4,248 nt of DNA from a virus (Duplodnaviria > Heunggongvirae > Uroviricota > Caudoviricetes). The notes under the pieces were generated by a model. That model worked only from the letters and a program-made list of their open reading frames with translations. It was not told where the DNA came from and searched no databases. The position numbers were made by a program, and so were the translations under genes. The stretch lies in IMG/VR virus record IMGVR_UViG_2671180417_000009. One strand, given 5' to 3'. Shown piece after piece: positions 337-4,202 of the stretch; positions within the stretch are counted from its first letter, which is position 1, and each line of letters starts with the position of its first letter.

Positions 337-492
337 TCACTCACCTGAGTTTCTTTCCAGCCAGCGACGGGCACCATTTTCGGTTTTAAACGTTTTGCTT
401 CTGGTATACGTCATCGCGGTAAACGTGCCGTCCTGGTTGGGAAACACGCCGCATACCAGAGATTCGTTGTTGCCAAGATCGATAGTATCCAT
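337..492 (-). CDS. ydfA: YdfA-like small prophage protein (51 aa, DUF1391-type)
   Basis: Internal start of track ORF 337..546: minus-strand ATG at 492-490 with GAGGT 4 nt upstream; translation MDTIDLGNNESLVCGVFPNQDGTFTAMTYTRSKTFKTENGARRWLERNSGE. The 18 codons upstream in the track ORF have no RBS and look non-coding. Assignment to YdfA is from memory. Confidence 0.7.
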   Translation of the reverse strand: MDTIDLGNNESLVCGVFPNQDGTFTAMTYTRSKTFKTENGARRWLERNSGE

Positions 493-564
493 GCTGACCT
501 CATTTCCCCTTAACGCCAGGGTAGCGGAACTGTTTGCTGAGAACACCGTGCGGTGTCTTGATGA

Positions 565-630
565 GTAGAATTTAGAATAACCTAAGAATTGTGGTCAAGC
601 TTTTTGTGTAGAAAAACCTAAGTTTTTTGA
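565..630 (-). promoter_or_regulatory. Putative promoter/operator for the ydfA-B-C-like transcription unit
   Basis: On the minus strand: TTGACC (-35-like, plus 598-593), 17-18 nt spacer, then CTAAAT/TAAATT (-10-like). Two direct copies of CTTAGGTT(A/T)TTCTA (minus strand; plus 573-586 and 609-622), the same motif family found in the dicA-dicC intergenic region. Hexamers read by eye; no experimental support. Confidence 0.3.
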
Positions 631-633
631 TGT

Positions 634-667
634 AAAAAACACAAGCATTTGAAAGTTTGTGCTTTTT
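634..667. terminator. Putative bidirectional intrinsic terminator between dicA-like and ydfA-like
   Basis: Hairpin CACAAGC (640-646) / GTTTGTG (655-661) with 8-nt loop ATTTGAAA; 7-bp stem including one G-U pair. Flanked by A6 (634-639, a T-run on the minus strand) and CTTTTT (662-667, a T-run on the plus strand). Lies about 35 nt downstream of the dicA-like stop on the minus strand. The stem is AT-rich and weak. Confidence 0.4.
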
Positions 668-696
668 ATTACAGAGAGTGGCGAAAAAAGGGGGGG

Positions 697-1104
697 TTAT
701 TTATTTGCGCTTCTTTTGCGAGCTTTGAGTAGTTCTTCAAAAAGTTTGTTGAAATTCTCAACTCGAGCACGCATCTCTGACAACAGAGCCTTTTGCTCTG
801 ACTCAGGCAGTGCGTCGAACAGTTGAAGCAACTCTTTTTGATCTTCTGTCAGATTAACTGGCTGATTATCTGGGATCGGTTCGCCTGGTTGCTTATCTTC
901 ATCTCCAAAAAGAAGCCAAGTCGGCGAGCACTGAAGCGCCTGGCTCAGTGCGAATAATCTCTTCCCCGCTGGCTGTGTTTCATCTCTTTCCCATTGAGAA
1001 ATTGTTACGTGAGCCACTTTAACCAGCTTACCTAATGCGGCCTGAGACAGTTTTAATTTTTTACGCCTGTATAAGAGGCGAGCACCGAAGGTTTCGTTTT
1101 TCAT
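697..1104 (-). CDS. dicA: DicA-like prophage repressor (XRE-family HTH, CI-like, 135 aa)
   Basis: Track ORF 697..1104 (-). N-terminal HTH segment LSQAALGKLVKVAHVTISQWERDETQPAGKRLFALSQALQCSPTWLLFGDEDKQP and C-terminal ...PESEQ...EMRARVENFNKLFEELLKARKR closely match my recollection of E. coli Qin DicA (also 135 aa). Divergent from a cro-like gene, as in lambdoid immunity regions. No SD before the ATG. Confidence 0.9.
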   Translation of the reverse strand: MKNETFGARLLYRRKKLKLSQAALGKLVKVAHVTISQWERDETQPAGKRLFALSQALQCSPTWLLFGDEDKQPGEPIPDNQPVNLTEDQKELLQLFDALPESEQKALLSEMRARVENFNKLFEELLKARKRSANK

Positions 1105-1180
1105 ATTAGGTAATTCTAATTTTTCTTGACTTAGGTTTCTCTACGATCTAGTTTCCTTAGGAAAATCTAAGGAGTTCGAT
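1105..1180. promoter_or_regulatory. Divergent promoter/operator region between dicA-like and dicC-like
   Basis: Rightward promoter candidate: -35 TTGACT (1126-1131), 17-nt spacer, -10 TAGTTT (1149-1154), then SD AAGGAG (1169-1174) 6 nt before ATG 1181. Operator-like sites: TTAGGTAATTCTAA (1106-1119), CTTAGGTTTCTCTA (1130-1143) overlapping the -35, and the perfect inverted repeat CCTTAG-N6-CTAAGG (1155-1172) between the -10 and the SD. Leftward: TAGAAT (-10-like, minus strand over plus 1113-1118) about 8 nt from the dicA ATG. Confidence 0.6.
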
Positions 1181-1408
1181 ATGTTGAAAATTGATGCTAT
1201 AGCGTTTTTTGGCAGCAAAACAAAGCTTGCCAATGCCGCAGGAGTTAGGCTGGCAAGCGTTGCTGCATGGGGGAAACTGGTTCCTGAAGGTCGCGCGATG
1301 CGTCTACAGGAGGCATCTGGCGGTGAGCTTCAGTATGATCCCAAAGTTTATGACGAATATCGTAAGACGAAGCGGGCGGGGCGGTTGAACAATGAAAATC
1401 ACCCCTGA
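1181..1408 (+). CDS. dicC: DicC/Cro-like small DNA-binding regulator (75 aa)
   Basis: Track ORF 1181..1408 (+) with strong SD AAGGAG and ATG start. Divergent from the repressor gene. Sequence MLKIDAIAFFGSKTKLANAAGVRLASV...EGRAMRLQEASGGELQYDPKVYDEYRKTKRAGRLNNENHP matches my recollection of Qin DicC (about 76 aa, YdaS/Cro-like family). Confidence 0.85.
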   Translation: MLKIDAIAFFGSKTKLANAAGVRLASVAAWGKLVPEGRAMRLQEASGGELQYDPKVYDEYRKTKRAGRLNNENHP

Positions 1409-1943: not shown

Positions 1944-2955
1944 AAAGGTGAAAACCGGCAGTTCATCCAGTAAGTCAGTATTGACCTGGCTTGCTGATAT
2001 GTGCGGTGCCGATTTGTGTGCATACCCGTCTGTATCTGCCCTGGCAGAAGTAACGGAACTGAACAAAAAGACAGTGCAGGACAGCTTACGACACCTGATG
2101 GAGATTGGGTTAATTGTTGATACCGGTGAGAGAAAAGGCAGAACAAAGCAAATTGTGGTGTACCGACTTATCGGTGTAGAAGAAAGTGTTGCCGAGCCTG
2201 AATACACCCAAAAACGGGAGTCTTTAAAGGTGGGTAAAATTGGTGCTGTTAATAAAAACAGTACCGAAAATGGTTATGTTTCAGCACAAAAGAGCCCCAA
2301 AAACGGAACTCTTAGCTGCATGGAAAATAACCAAAGACACCCAAATTTTCCATCAAAGACACCCAAAAACGGATCACGGAACCCAAAGGAACCCAAAGAT
2401 CTAAACACCACACATAACGCACGCGAGAGTGCTCCGACCAGTGAGCAGAAAGTTTTGTCGTTACAGGCTGCACCTCCTGTATTCCTGGATGGCCTGAGCG
2501 AACCCATCGGAAAATTTCCGATGACCGATAGCTGGCATCCGTCGCGGGATTTTCGACGACGGGCTGCGTTGTGGGGGATGGCTTTGCCGGAGACAGAATT
2601 TACGCCTGCTGAACTTGCCGCATTCCGGGATTACTGGAGTGATGAGGGGAAGGTTTTTACGCAGGTTCAGTGGGAGCAGAAATTCGCCCGTCACGTAAAT
2701 CACGTCAGGGCGCAGGTTAAACCAGTCAGCAAGGGGGTAAACCATGCAGCAGCACCAGGTGGCACCGCATCACGGGCAGTTCAGGAAATTCGGGCAGCAC
2801 GTGAGCAGTGGGAACGTGAAAACGGATTTATCAGCGACGGAAACGGTCTGGAAGCTGTGGGAACTCATGGGGGAGGTTTATTCGAACCGCTGGACCCAGA
2901 AGAACGGGGCCGCACCTTCGAAGCTCTGGATTGCACAGATTGGCGCGATGACTGA
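1915..2955 (+). CDS. Replication initiator, lambda O-like: N-terminal winged-helix domain plus DnaT-like C-terminal domain (about 347 aa)
   Basis: Same frame as track ORF 1840..2955, but the preferred start is ATG 1915 (AGGGG SD at 1905-1909, 5-nt spacer), giving MSIDALRWAKKVKTGSSSSKSVLTWLADMCGADLCAYPSVSALAEVTELNKKTVQDSLRHLMEIGLIVDTGERKGRTKQIVVYRL, a wHTH-like N-terminus. C-terminal region DSWHPSRDFRRRAALWGMALPETEFTPAELAAFRDYWSDEGKVFTQVQWEQKFARHV resembles the DnaT C-terminal / YdaU (DUF1376) family. The start choice is an inference; the TTG at 1840 and ATG at 1852 lack an SD. Confidence 0.8.
   Translation: MSIDALRWAKKVKTGSSSSKSVLTWLADMCGADLCAYPSVSALAEVTELNKKTVQDSLRHLMEIGLIVDTGERKGRTKQIVVYRLIGVEESVAEPEYTQKRESLKVGKIGAVNKNSTENGYVSAQKSPKNGTLSCMENNQRHPNFPSKTPKNGSRNPKEPKDLNTTHNARESAPTSEQKVLSLQAAPPVFLDGLSEPIGKFPMTDSWHPSRDFRRRAALWGMALPETEFTPAELAAFRDYWSDEGKVFTQVQWEQKFARHVNHVRAQVKPVSKGVNHAAAPGGTASRAVQEIRAAREQWERENGFISDGNGLEAVGTHGGGLFEPLDPEERGRTFEALDCTDWRDD
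2204..2398 (+). repeat. Cluster of short direct repeats inside the O-like gene (candidate origin iterons)
   Basis: CCCAAA cores start at 2207, 2296, 2340, 2362, 2382 and 2392. AAAGACACCCAAA occurs twice (2333-2345, 2355-2367); CCCAAAAACGG three times (from 2207, 2296, 2362); GGAACCCAAAG in tandem (2378-2388, 2388-2398). Spacings 89, 44, 22, 20 and 10 bp are near multiples of a helical turn. AT-rich stretch at about 2225-2290. The repeats fall in the interdomain linker-coding part of the gene, as the lambda ori does in O. Confidence 0.4.
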
Positions 2956-3409
2956 GCAGCAAATCCGACAGGTCTGCCGCCAGTGCATGGACCGCTGCCG
3001 GGCGGGTGAAACATGGCCTCCGGACCTGGCTGAGTTTGTGGCACTGATTTCGGAAAGCGGAGCCAATCCATTCGGTCTGACGGTGGATGCTGTGATGGAG
3101 GAGTACCGCCGCTGGCGCAATGAGTCCTGGCGATATGACGGAAGTGATAAGTACCTGTGGTCTCAGCCTGTGCTGTATCACATTTGCCTCGAGATGCGTT
3201 CAAAGGGGATTGAGCGCCAGATGACCGAAGGGGAATTAAAACGGCTTGCAGAACGGCAGCTGGCGAAATGGGCAAAGCATGTTAGTAACGGCCTGAGCGT
3301 TCCGCCAGTCCGGCGACAACTGGCGGCACCCAAACGCCCGTCGGGGCCAACGCCAATTGAGTTGCTGAAACAGGAATATGAACGCCGGAAAGCGGCTGGG
3401 TTTGTTTGA
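2744..3409 (+). CDS. Replication protein P-like (lambda P family helicase loader), 221 aa if started at 2744
   Basis: Track ORF 2744..3409 (+). Its C-terminal two-thirds align by eye with lambda P: WPPDLAEFVALI ~ LPSPGQFVAWC, VDAVMEEYRRWRN ~ LVDMVYEYCRKRG, GELKRLAERQLAKWAKHVSNG ~ AELRRKAADELVHMTARINRG. ATG 2744 has a strong SD (AAGGGGG at 2731-2737, 6-nt spacer) and gives a lambda-P-like length (lambda P is 233 aa). Alternative starts: ATG 2867, and ATG 2948, which overlaps the O-like stop as ATGACTGA; the start is uncertain. No Walker A motif, so not a DnaC-type loader. Confidence 0.75.
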   Translation: MQQHQVAPHHGQFRKFGQHVSSGNVKTDLSATETVWKLWELMGEVYSNRWTQKNGAAPSKLWIAQIGAMTEQQIRQVCRQCMDRCRAGETWPPDLAEFVALISESGANPFGLTVDAVMEEYRRWRNESWRYDGSDKYLWSQPVLYHICLEMRSKGIERQMTEGELKRLAERQLAKWAKHVSNGLSVPPVRRQLAAPKRPSGPTPIELLKQEYERRKAAGFV

Positions 3410-3527
3410 GTTGAGAAGTAATTTTTACCGGGAGGAAATTTATGGAGACTGTTTTTGACGCACTGAAAGCGATGGGAAAAGCCACGTCGGTAGAGCTGGC
3501 TGCGCGCTTGATATCAGTCGTGAAGAA

Positions 3528-4202
3528 GTGCTGAACGAACTATGGGAACTGAAAAAGGCTGGTTTCGTTGATAAAAGCGCGTACACCTGGCGTGTGGCTG
3601 ATAACAACGTTCAGCAGGAACAGCCAGCGCAGGCAGAACTGCCGGAAGAAATCACCACAGCAACAGTAGCGAAAATCTCAGAGTGCGATTTAACCGCGAC
3701 GATTGAACAACGAGGACCACAAACGGCTGATGAGCTGGCTACGTTTTTCGGCATCACATCACGCAAAGTGGCTTCAACGCTGGCAATGGCAATCAGCAAA
3801 GGTCGTCTGATTCGCGTAAATCAGGGCGGTAAATTTCGTTACTGCATACCGGGCGATAATTTACCAGCAGAGTCGAAAGCAGCATCGGTAGCGGAAACTG
3901 ATGGTAAGGCCTTTCCTCAGACCGCAGGTGTTGCGTTACCAGTACAGGAGGCTGCAACACAGGAAGATATTAAAACAGAAACTGTGGCGGACATTGTGCA
4001 GTCGTTGCCATCGTTTACCGAAACGCAAGCAGATGAGCTGATTTTTCCGTCCCTGCGCAGGACAAACCTGGCGCTGCGCAGGGCGAAAAGTGATGTTCAG
4101 AAGTGGGAGCGAGTCTGCGCCGCGCTGCGGGAGCTGAACAAGCACCGGGATATTGTTCGACAGATTACTGATTCTTCCCGCCATGTTGCATCGGAAAAGT
4201 GA
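3528..4202 (+). CDS. Hypothetical prophage protein with winged-helix-like N-terminus; longest ORF of an apparently frameshifted gene
   Basis: Track ORF 3528..4202 (+), which begins at GTG with a poor SD. The frame is open back to 3459 with no start codon, and reads ...[32 protein letters not shown]. Upstream ORF 3442..3534 (ATG, GGAGG SD 6 nt upstream) in another frame encodes [30 protein letters not shown]. Joining the two at about 3508-3512 gives one continuous wHTH-like N-terminus, so this is likely the 3' part of a gene disrupted by a 1-nt indel. Function not recognised. Confidence 0.55.

Follow-up and report, generated by a model that had tools for sequence, protein, structure and literature searches.

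The window, by which we mean the whole 4,248-bp stretch of DNA that was analysed, carries a divergently transcribed repressor and Cro-type gene pair together with the start of a leftward operon, as follows.

337..492, minus strand: ydfA-like gene (DUF1391, 51 aa; Pfam DUF1391, E 7e-29), the first gene of its operon
633..668, minus strand: hairpin with a T-run, likely the dicA terminator, between the dicA stop codon and the distal OL site
697..1104, minus strand: dicA-like repressor gene (135 aa) encoding an N-terminal helix-turn-helix
1181..1408, plus strand: dicC-like (Cro-type) gene (75 aa), with the Shine-Dalgarno sequence AAGGAG at 1169-1174

The initial annotation had guessed the genes to be dicA, dicC and ydfABC-like, and sequence identities, Pfam and PDB matches confirm this. 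The DicA-like protein shares 63% identity with K-12 DicA, and its residues 1-68 match the P22 C2 repressor's DNA-binding domain (E 1e-21) in the same residue numbering, with Val33, Ser36, Gln37 and Arg13/14 retained. The PDB match extends no further than residue 69; the C-terminal part is short and helical, and Pfam returns only helix-turn-helix families (HTH_3) for this protein, with no Peptidase_S24. It is not a repressor of the SOS-cleavable CI type, which bears a C-terminal, LexA-like S24 self-cleavage domain. The DicC-like protein is 85% identical to K-12 DicC and matches P22 Cro (Pfam P22_Cro, 2.5e-13; PDB 1rzs, 7e-7). To the left of the dicA-like gene, ydfB and ydfC open reading frames follow ydfA, and in the relative PPompW a dicB-type cell-division inhibitor lies further down the ydfABC operon. 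The right arm holds an intact Rac-like ydaT and replication module. The minus-strand RNA of the likely terminator folds with -11.2 kcal/mol (z = -4.2), and a terminator scan called the plus-strand version of the same hairpin. Sequence features of a Qin-type module are found here: a DicA-type repressor of ~135 aa, with a helix-turn-helix and a conserved C-terminal part of ~50 aa, that diverges from a DicC of ~75 aa; a ydfA-ydfB-ydfC operon directly downstream of dicA with its own putative promoter; and a TTAG-N6-CTAA core at the dicCp- and dicBp-type promoters.

Five related sites of one motif family, TTAGG-N5/6-CTA, had been described in the two regulatory regions, and a direct reading of the window recovers all of them: TTAGGTAATTCTAA at 1106-1119, CTTAGGTTTCTCTA at 1130-1143, the perfect 6+6 inverted repeat CCTTAG-GAAAAT-CTAAGG at 1155-1172 and, on the minus strand, CTTAGGTTATTCTA at plus 573-586 and CTTAGGTTTTTCTA at plus 609-622. 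The pattern TTAGGNNNNNCTA has five matches on both strands of the 4248 bp, exactly these sites and none elsewhere. TTAGG-N5-CTA thus occurs five times, against 0.02 expected from 200 dinucleotide-preserving shuffles, none of which reaches five (0/200), and in the whole window it is confined to the two regulatory regions that flank the dicA-like gene. With the core TTAG-N6-CTAA at up to one mismatch, the same five sites and no others are found (1.27 expected; 3/200 shuffles reach five), and at up to two mismatches the signal drowns in the background (17 matches vs 15.5 expected). The motif family is therefore real, but it is better described as a set of P22-type 18-bp operators, CCTTAGG-N4-CCTAAGG, around the core TTAG-N6-CTAA. 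Each site is an 18-bp pseudo-palindrome of 7-bp half-sites, departing from that ideal sequence, on either side of an A/T-rich 4-bp centre (AAAA, TTTC, TAAT, TTTT and TTAT). Since every site combines one strong half (CTTAGG) with one weak half (TCTA[A/C]), the pattern first seen was TTAGG-N5-CTA. The sites and the promoters that they accompany are listed below.

569..598, minus strand: putative ydfABC operon promoter, dicBp-like/PL-like, called by a promoter scan (-35 TTGACC at 598-593, 18-bp spacer, -10 TAAATT at 574-569)
570..587: proximal OL-like predicted operator, minus-strand reading TCTTAGG-TTAT-TCTAAAT, core at plus 572-585
606..623: distal OL-like predicted operator, minus-strand reading ACTTAGG-TTTT-TCTACAC, core at plus 608-621
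1104..1121: O1, Oa-like predicted operator, TATTAGG-TAAT-TCTAATT, an exact match to the core TTAG-N6-CTAA at 1106-1119
1113..1118, minus strand: possible -10 TAGAAT of a PRM-like dicA promoter, inside O1
1126..1154, plus strand: putative dicC promoter, PR-like (-35 TTGACT at 1126-1131, 17-bp spacer, -10 TAGTTT at 1149-1154)
1129..1146: O2, Om-like predicted operator, ACTTAGG-TTTC-TCTACGA, core at 1131-1144 with one mismatch
1155..1172: O3, Oc-like predicted operator, CCTTAGG-AAAA-TCTAAGG, a perfect 6+6 inverted repeat

Three of the sites lie in the 76-bp dicA-dicC spacer, with centres 25 bp (O1-O2) and 26 bp (O2-O3) apart. O1 abuts the start codon of dicA, 1104 being the A of the minus-strand ATG, and a distance of 0-2 nt from the ATG is kept in all 66 distinct loci compared; O1 is the positional counterpart of K-12 Oa, TTAGCATTAGCTAA. 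O2 does overlap the -35 element, as had been claimed: it covers the last two bases of TTGACT and fills the promoter spacer. As the one perfect dyad among the three, O3 extends from the -10 over the predicted dicC transcription start into the Shine-Dalgarno sequence. It had been placed between these two elements, which is not accurate, as it starts directly after TAGTTT and its right arm overlaps AAGGAG. Its position relative to the -10 equals that of K-12 Oc (TTGTTAGTCATAACTAACAA). The geometry of the putative dicC promoter agrees with that of K-12 dicCp (TTGACT-17-TATCTT), for which the start site was mapped by 5'RACE (PMC3441716). A simple promoter scan of the window did not call the dicC promoter because its -10 is weak. 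On the opposite strand, TAGAAT ends 8 nt ahead of the dicA ATG with no Shine-Dalgarno sequence, and TAGAAT, TAGCAT or TAGTAT is retained at dicA in all loci compared; the dicA promoter could thus be PRM-like and nearly leaderless, with its -10 inside O1. For K-12 dicA, Reg-Seq found no RNAP site.

The two left-hand sites are 36 bp apart and accompany a promoter homologous to K-12 TTGACC-17-TAATCT. They had been described as lying within or near TTGACC. They are near it, flanking this -35 on the minus strand, but neither overlaps it: the distal site ends 10 nt upstream of the -35, and the proximal site, at the position of K-12 GTTAGTCATGGCTAAT, fills the spacer between -35 and -10 and overlaps TAAATT by two bases. 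A review gives three operators at dicBp (PMC10448788); core scans at up to one and up to two mismatches yield only two in 480-700. A nearby TTCTAC repeat (565-570) was considered as an extra left-hand operator and rejected, as it is not conserved among relatives. Single-sequence folds of the 5'UTR downstream of the left promoter give a hairpin; RNAalifold returned only a weak 4-pair consensus, because MAFFT had misaligned the hairpin, and an Rfam scan of the window (E up to 1) found no RNA family. The left and right clusters, ~540 bp apart, are inverted copies of one another (inverted repeats I1-I3).

The arrangement is conserved well beyond this locus. The comparison took in 66 distinct DicA-like loci of seven genera (Pantoea, Enterobacter, Erwinia, Buttiauxella, Citrobacter, Yersinia and Escherichia). 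Their two regulatory regions hold 13.8 cores per kb, and 0.10 per kb are found elsewhere, a ~130-fold difference. K-12 Qin and all DicA-like loci examined share the three-plus-two layout at constant spacing (right-hand sites 25-26 bp, left-hand sites 35-36 bp), and the sites accompany the dicA/dicC cassette into different genera, where layout and spacing persist but the flanking sequence does not. Absence of the motif from near-identical immunity regions had been named as a ground for refutation, and this is not what is seen: 58 distinct loci of the same specificity class retain all five sites almost without exception. Phylogenetic footprinting of the dicA-dicC spacer did not single out the sites, since the whole spacer is highly conserved; only the left-hand region therefore gives a clean contrast. 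There, the operator cores are near-invariant and neighbouring spacer bases are free to vary: the mean column entropy of the distal core is 0.10 bit vs 0.94 bit in the next spacer (41 distinct sequences), and the proximal core has 0.12 bit, where the stretch from the -35 to this site has 1.17 bit.

The loci differ at operator position 2, the outermost base predicted to be contacted, which is C here and G in Qin. This base tracks residue 22 of DicA and not DicC: Ala22 goes with C in 57/58 loci and Arg22 with G in 7/8, an association drawn from two or three deep lineages that does not amount to an independent statistical test. In the left-hand sites, position 2 is C in 45/57 and 52/57 of the class-C loci and G in 8/8 of the class-G loci, and within O2, ACTTAGGTTTCTCTAC is almost unchanged among class-C loci. 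The DicC recognition helix RLASVAAW occurs with both operator classes. In place of the Qin half-site TTG-TTAG, as in Oc, the window has CC-TTAGG, and the locus may be a heteroimmune variant relative to Qin.

The literature on the K-12 homologues is consistent with control of both promoters by the DicA-like and/or DicC-like protein, as the initial annotation had suggested. The Qin operators Oa, Om and Oc and those at dicBp go back to earlier work (Bejar et al. 1988, as cited in PMC10448788; Yun et al. 2012, PMC3441716). In K-12, DicA binds Oc in vivo, represses dicC and is required for dicA expression, and a single A-to-C change in the genetically defined operator abolishes binding (PMC3441716). 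DicA also strongly represses dicBp (PMC10448788), where the Reg-Seq paper gives the position of its site as unknown. ChIP-seq of K-12 Qin DicC shows peaks on both sides of dicA and a motif TT(A/C/T)G...C(G/A/T)AA. Om and Oa cloned alone were not bound by DicA in the in vivo assay (PMC3441716), so some of the sites may not bind DicA by themselves. The exact site sequences of the window did not turn up in the searchable literature, where the only operator string found was that of K-12 Oc; the study of DicC in O157:H7 by Pan et al. 2019 contains no binding data, and a gSELEX survey gives target names only. In the P22 operators (ATTTAAG-ATAT-CTTAAAT), contacts are made at positions 2-7 and 12-17 but not in the 4-bp centre, and the sites of the window, judged from their sequence, fit this geometry and have similarly A/T-rich centres.

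The five sites are most likely repressor-binding operators of an E. coli prophage lysis/lysogeny switch closely related to the well-studied ones of Qin (DicA/DicC) and phage P22, and we hold it very probable that this is a lambdoid, P22-type immunity switch with a DicA-like repressor and a DicC-like Cro. A different division of labour would make them mainly DicC operators, with the DicA-like protein using O3 only and perhaps one left-hand site, and the rest serving DicC or acting as cooperative helpers with no affinity of their own. Such a division would fit the binding of DicA to Oc but not to Om or Oa in K-12, the K-12 DicC ChIP motif, which is the shared core alone, and the flanks that track the DicA class, which are complete only in O3. 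We nonetheless think it improbable, as O2 here (one core mismatch, C at position 2, near-invariant) is a far better site than K-12 Om with its three mismatches, the class-specific base at position 2 is present in both left-hand sites, and K-12 DicA represses dicBp strongly.

Host proteins might also be the chief readers of the sites, either YjdC, which can repress targets of DicA if DicA is missing, or the nucleoid proteins H-NS/Cnu, Fis or Hfq, and effects of host factors on the K-12 dic locus have been reported. This is very unlikely, given that the operator flank co-varies with the prophage's own repressor, that the 7+4+7 geometry is that of the homologous P22 C2 repressor, and that the sites move between genera with the cassette. 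Finally, the regions are A/T-rich and the two clusters are mutually inverted, which would fit repeats that bind no protein and are a by-product of A/T-rich promoters or the relic of an ancient inverted duplication. We find this scarcely credible: none of the 200 shuffles reaches five TTAGG-N5-CTA matches, near-identical loci vary in spacer bases only a few nucleotides from sites that stay unchanged, layout and spacing outlast the flanks across genera, and the homologous K-12 site is a genetically defined operator that loses binding on a single A-to-C change.

If the five sites are operators of such a switch, DicA dimers in the prophage state would sit on O3, probably on O2 as well, and on both left-hand sites, shutting off both the dicC/ydaT/replication operon and the ydfABC operon. 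Inactivation of DicA would allow DicC to be made. Because DicA is without a self-cleavage domain, the trigger would presumably be an antirepressor like Rem of Qin. DicC would then bind the same sites, O1 likely being the key one, and turn dicA off. Within this scheme the present analysis shows the sites, where they lie relative to the promoters, how far they are conserved and the homologies of the proteins. Work by others on the K-12 homologues shows that DicA binds Oc and represses dicC and dicBp, and that DicC binds to either side of dicA; the order in which the sites are occupied, any cooperativity, the promoter of dicA and control by an antirepressor are what we infer.

The finding of the operators is correct but ordinary, and adds no new principle. 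It does map the operators, at the level of sequence, of a prophage immunity type that is very common in E. coli, with a match to the region in 2521 of 5426 complete genomes, and it locates the probable DicA/DicC sites at a dicBp-type promoter, for which Reg-Seq left the K-12 position open. One operator position and one repressor residue emerge as candidate immunity determinants. The map could be of use in annotation, in predicting superinfection immunity and in understanding how dicB-type division inhibitors are controlled. A more speculative extension, which we regard as possible but rather doubtful, is that DicA forms heteroimmune classes defined by the position-2 base and helix-2 residue 22, while DicC, whose recognition helix RLASVAAW occurs with both, reads only the shared core and is interchangeable between them. 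If so, the DicC of one prophage could turn off dicA of a co-resident prophage of different immunity, and the ensuing release of its dicB/dicF division inhibitors would amount to cross-induction between the two.

Among known systems, Qin is close in layout, with the gene order dicC, dicA, ydfA, ydfB, ydfC, the promoter geometry and the positions of five sites with the TTAG-N6-CTAA core in common. The two differ in the half-site flank (CC-TTAGG here, TTG-TTAG in Qin), in the quality of O2 (good here, degenerate in Qin), in DicA helix 2 (SQAAL here, TQRSL in Qin) and in the right arm, where the Rac-like ydaT/replication module is intact here and the Qin arm has decayed. P22 immC, in which C2 and Cro act on OR1-3 and OL1-3, has a homologous repressor DNA-binding domain and a homologous Cro, and its 18-bp operators likewise have an A/T-rich 4-bp centre and share T3-T4-A5 and G7 of the half-site. 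However, P22 has the half-site TTTAAG where the window has CTTAGG, and the switch predicted here has a 135-aa repressor without an S24 domain and only two left-hand sites.

Lambda has three tandem operators over PR/PRM and, across the repressor gene from these, another cluster at the leftward early promoter; like the sites here, its operators are pseudo-symmetric, with one consensus and one non-consensus half. The three-plus-two resemblance to lambda OR/OL that had been proposed is borne out by tandem dyads over divergent promoters, by divergent repressor and cro genes and by right and left clusters that flank the repressor gene, except that there are two left-hand sites and not three, that the clusters are separated by only ~540 bp, that the repressor and Cro belong to the P22 sequence family, and that the repressor is without a RecA-cleavable domain. 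CP-933P of E. coli O157:H7 (PaaR2 with YdaS/YdaT) is similar in its Cro-like/YdaT (CII-like) right arm, its bistable divergent switch, its leaderless repressor gene and its repeats common to the PR/PRM region and PL, but has another repressor family and a different repeat, GTTTAGTAA, in four inverted repeats plus direct repeats (PMC8630535).

The five TTAGG-N5/6-CTA sites reported in the initial annotation are, judging from the sequence, very probably the operators of a DicA/DicC-type switch. By nucleotide identity, the window is of E. coli lambdoid prophage origin: positions 500-1420 share 98.9% identity with many E. coli chromosomes (2521 of the 5426 complete genomes have some match to this region), PPompW prophages of Shiga-toxin-producing strains show 95.6% identity over the entire window, and a repressor protein identical to the window's is also encoded on IMG/VR viral contigs. 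The layout is listed below, with O1, O2, and O3 denoting the right-hand sites, which resemble Oa, Om, and Oc of the K-12 prophage Qin.

Genes, promoters, and probable operators of the window
Left end, minus strand: ydfC, ydfB, and ydfA, in that order
337-492, minus strand: ydfA (DUF1391, E 7e-29)
Between ydfA and the hairpin with T-run: promoter region
570-587, minus strand: proximal left site, TCTTAGG-TTAT-TCTAAAT
598-569, minus strand: ydfABC promoter from a promoter scan (-35 TTGACC 598-593, 18-bp spacer, -10 TAAATT 574-569)
606-623, minus strand: distal left site, ACTTAGG-TTTT-TCTACAC
633-668: hairpin with T-run, between the dicA stop codon and the distal left site
697-1104, minus strand: dicA-like gene
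Between dicA and dicC: spacer of 76 bp
1104-1121: O1, TATTAGG-TAAT-TCTAATT
1126-1154, plus strand: dicC promoter (-35 TTGACT 1126-1131, 17-bp spacer, -10 TAGTTT 1149-1154)
1129-1146: O2, ACTTAGG-TTTC-TCTACGA
1155-1172: O3, CCTTAGG-AAAA-TCTAAGG
1181-1408, plus strand: dicC-like gene
1392-1943, after dicC: ydaT-like gene
Right part, after the ydaT-like gene: replication genes and a ydaW-like gene

All five sites lie where they were first reported. The pattern TTAGGNNNNNCTA matches exactly five times when both strands of the window are scanned (573-585(-), 609-621(-), 1106-1118(+), 1131-1143(+), and 1157-1169(+)), and nowhere else, compared with a mean of 0.02 matches in dinucleotide-preserving shuffles, none of which reached five (0/200). 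The symmetric core TTAG-N6-CTAA recovers the same five sites in the window, and nothing else, at up to one mismatch; at two mismatches, the pattern is not distinguishable there from background. Independently, a repeat finder linked the left cluster with the right one through inverted repeats I1-I3, I5, and I10. Every site pairs a strong half, CTTAGG, with a weaker one, TCTA[A/C], which explains why the asymmetric TTAGG-N5-CTA originally proposed fits so well, and in all five the strong half is upstream relative to the lytic-direction promoter under that site's control. In several relatives O3 is fully symmetric (CCTTAGG-TTTT-CCTAAGG). Right-hand centers lie 25 and 26 bp apart and left-hand ones 36 bp, with about 540 bp between the two clusters.

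An 18-bp P22-type frame seems a better description of the sites than that motif. The repressor's N-terminal 68 residues give an ungapped alignment with the P22 C2 repressor's DNA-binding domain (E 1e-21), with the same residue numbering and with Arg13, Arg14, Gln21, Val33, Ser36, Gln37, and Trp38 kept. P22 operators are 18 bp long (ATTTAAG-ATAT-CTTAAAT) and are contacted at positions 2-7 and 12-17, while readout of the four central bases is indirect and favors A/T-rich centers (PMC5175364, PMC4267663). Pfam finds no peptidase S24 domain in the window repressor, and induction would therefore be expected through an antirepressor, as with Rem of Qin, rather than through RecA-stimulated cleavage.

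The geometry of the dicC promoter is identical to that of K-12 dicCp (TTGACT-17-TATCTT, with Oc directly after), where 5'RACE has placed the start site (PMC3441716); thus, O2 fills the spacer, and O3 spans from just past the -10, across the predicted dicC start, into the Shine-Dalgarno sequence AAGGAG (1169-1174). With its right arm, CTAAGG, O3 also serves as this Shine-Dalgarno sequence, so that translation constrains the operator flank GG in the window's class as well; in K-12, the Shine-Dalgarno sequence lies apart from the operator. O1 abuts the dicA start codon, and no Shine-Dalgarno sequence is present upstream of dicA in the window. Inside O1, TAGAAT (minus strand, 1118-1113) ends 8 nt ahead of the dicA ATG, and TAGAAT, TAGCAT, or TAGTAT is present at that position in all relatives. 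From this, we infer a PRM-like, nearly leaderless dicA promoter within O1; leaderless arrangements have been reported for cI and paaR2 (PMC8630535). The 633-668 hairpin (-11.2 kcal/mol, z = -4.2) is likely the dicA terminator, and a run of seven G (688-694; C7 then T6 on the minus strand), not kept in relatives of other genera, lies shortly past the dicA stop codon.

On the left, where the promoter is homologous to TTGACC-17-TAATCT of K-12, the proximal site occupies the -35/-10 spacer and overlaps the -10, and the distal site stops 10 nt upstream of the -35. A hypervariable stretch of 7-8 bases (587-592 in the window, and the same place in loci L013-L066 of the comparative set) separates the -35 from the proximal operator; it reads ACAATTC, ATAACTC, ACCTACC, GCCCACC, ATATGCC, and others in E. 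coli prophages that are otherwise nearly identical and whose operators on either side do not vary. Downstream, the ydfA 5'UTR (about 493-562, minus strand) carries a conserved leader, CATCAAGACACCGCACGGTGTTCTCAG...GTTCCGCTACCCTGGCGTTAAGGGG. Its hairpin, with no match in Rfam, has an invariant CAC/GUG inner stem, a YGCACR-like loop, and an outer stem with compensating differences between genera (ACAC..GUGU, AAUCAC..GUGAUU, CCAAUCAC..GUGGUUGG), and could be a 5' stabilizer or a nut/put-like element.

DicA-like loci were gathered by protein-guided scan, 11 of them in reference genomes (Pantoea, Enterobacter, Erwinia, Escherichia ruysiae, E. albertii, Buttiauxella, Citrobacter, and Yersinia) and 80 in viral contigs; the DicA-like ORF is full-length in 89, and 66 differ from one another in regulatory sequence. 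The five positions, with their spacings, are found again across the set. Among the 66 distinct loci, hits to the core at up to one mismatch number 300 in the two regulatory regions (21.8 kb; 13.8 per kb) and 22 in the other 214 kb of locus sequence (0.10 per kb); the motif is thus not missing from near-identical immunity regions. Across 41 distinct sequences of the window's class, mean column entropy in the left-region operator cores is 0.10 and 0.12 bit, compared with 0.94 bit from the distal site to the -35 and 1.17 bit from the -35 to the proximal site. The dicA-dicC spacer is conserved along its whole length, and this contrast is therefore uninformative there. Together, the shuffle statistics and the conservation contrast rule out chance repeats and a duplication relic.

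The loci fall into two operator classes. In the window's class, position 2 of O3 is C in 57 of 58 distinct loci, position 7 is a conserved G, and DicA helix 2 reads S20-Q-A22-A/S; in the Qin class, position 2 is G (7/8 loci at O3, 8/8 at both left-hand sites), position 7 varies, and helix 2 reads T20-Q-R22-E/S. Residues 32-39 of the DicA recognition helix (HV, SQWE) are invariant in both. The DicC recognition helix is independent of class, with RLASVAAW found in both and several DicC types in each. Relative to K-12, the window's DicC is 85% identical and its DicA 63%. We hypothesize that DicA reads the class-specific outer base and DicC the shared core, in which case the window locus would be a heteroimmune relative of Qin; this association is put forward as a hypothesis because few deep lineages underlie it. 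It is possible that most sites are read by DicC only, but the base at position 2, which is class-specific at O2 and both left-hand sites, makes this less likely. Were the sites instead bound by a host factor, the joint change of the operator flank with the prophage repressor would be left unexplained. Two loci (L005, E. ruysiae, and L006, E. albertii; 2400-3100) have mosaic immunity regions, nearly window-like in DicC, O1, the strong half of O2, and the proximal left site, and of the Qin (TTG-TTAG) class in O3, the distal left site, and DicA helix 2, which suggests recombination within the operator region.

For a DicA/DicC switch, the lambda/P22 paradigm and the K-12 data would make O3 the primary DicA site, with O2 filled cooperatively, DicC turning dicA off via O1, and dicA transcribed from its nearly leaderless promoter. 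In K-12, DicA at Oc represses dicC and is needed for dicA expression; Oc (TTGTTAGTCATAACTAACAA) is genetically defined, single base changes permit cloning of the promoter fragment, DicA-dependent repression in vivo is lost with an A-to-C change, and Om and Oa cloned alone do not respond to DicA (PMC3441716). In K-12, DicC ChIP-seq peaks flank dicA on either side, and their MEME motif is TT(A/C/T)G...C(G/A/T)AA (PMC11430063).

Elsewhere in the window, the product of 1392-1943, whose gene overlaps dicC by 17 nt, belongs to the YdaT family (Pfam YdaT_toxin, E 8.4e-6). YdaT of CP-933P has been argued to be a CII-like activator and no toxin (PMC8630535), so a PRE-like promoter could be present. The ydaW-like (DUF1627) gene is broken into two ORFs (3442-3534 and 3528-4202, junction after 3506) by one missing base (gcgcg^cttgat vs gcgcgActtgat) relative to the intact 244-aa PPompW homologue, which makes it either a frameshift pseudogene or the product of a sequencing error.

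The searchable literature yielded no instance of the CC-TTAGG operator variant, and the Reg-Seq paper lists the DicA site at dicB as one whose position is not known (PMC7567609). Operators of this type have long been known: K-12 dicBp is repressed by DicA, with repression lifted by Rem, DicA and DicC act together as a bistable switch, and the Qin operators at dicCp and dicBp have been likened to those of lambda PR and PL (PMC10448788).
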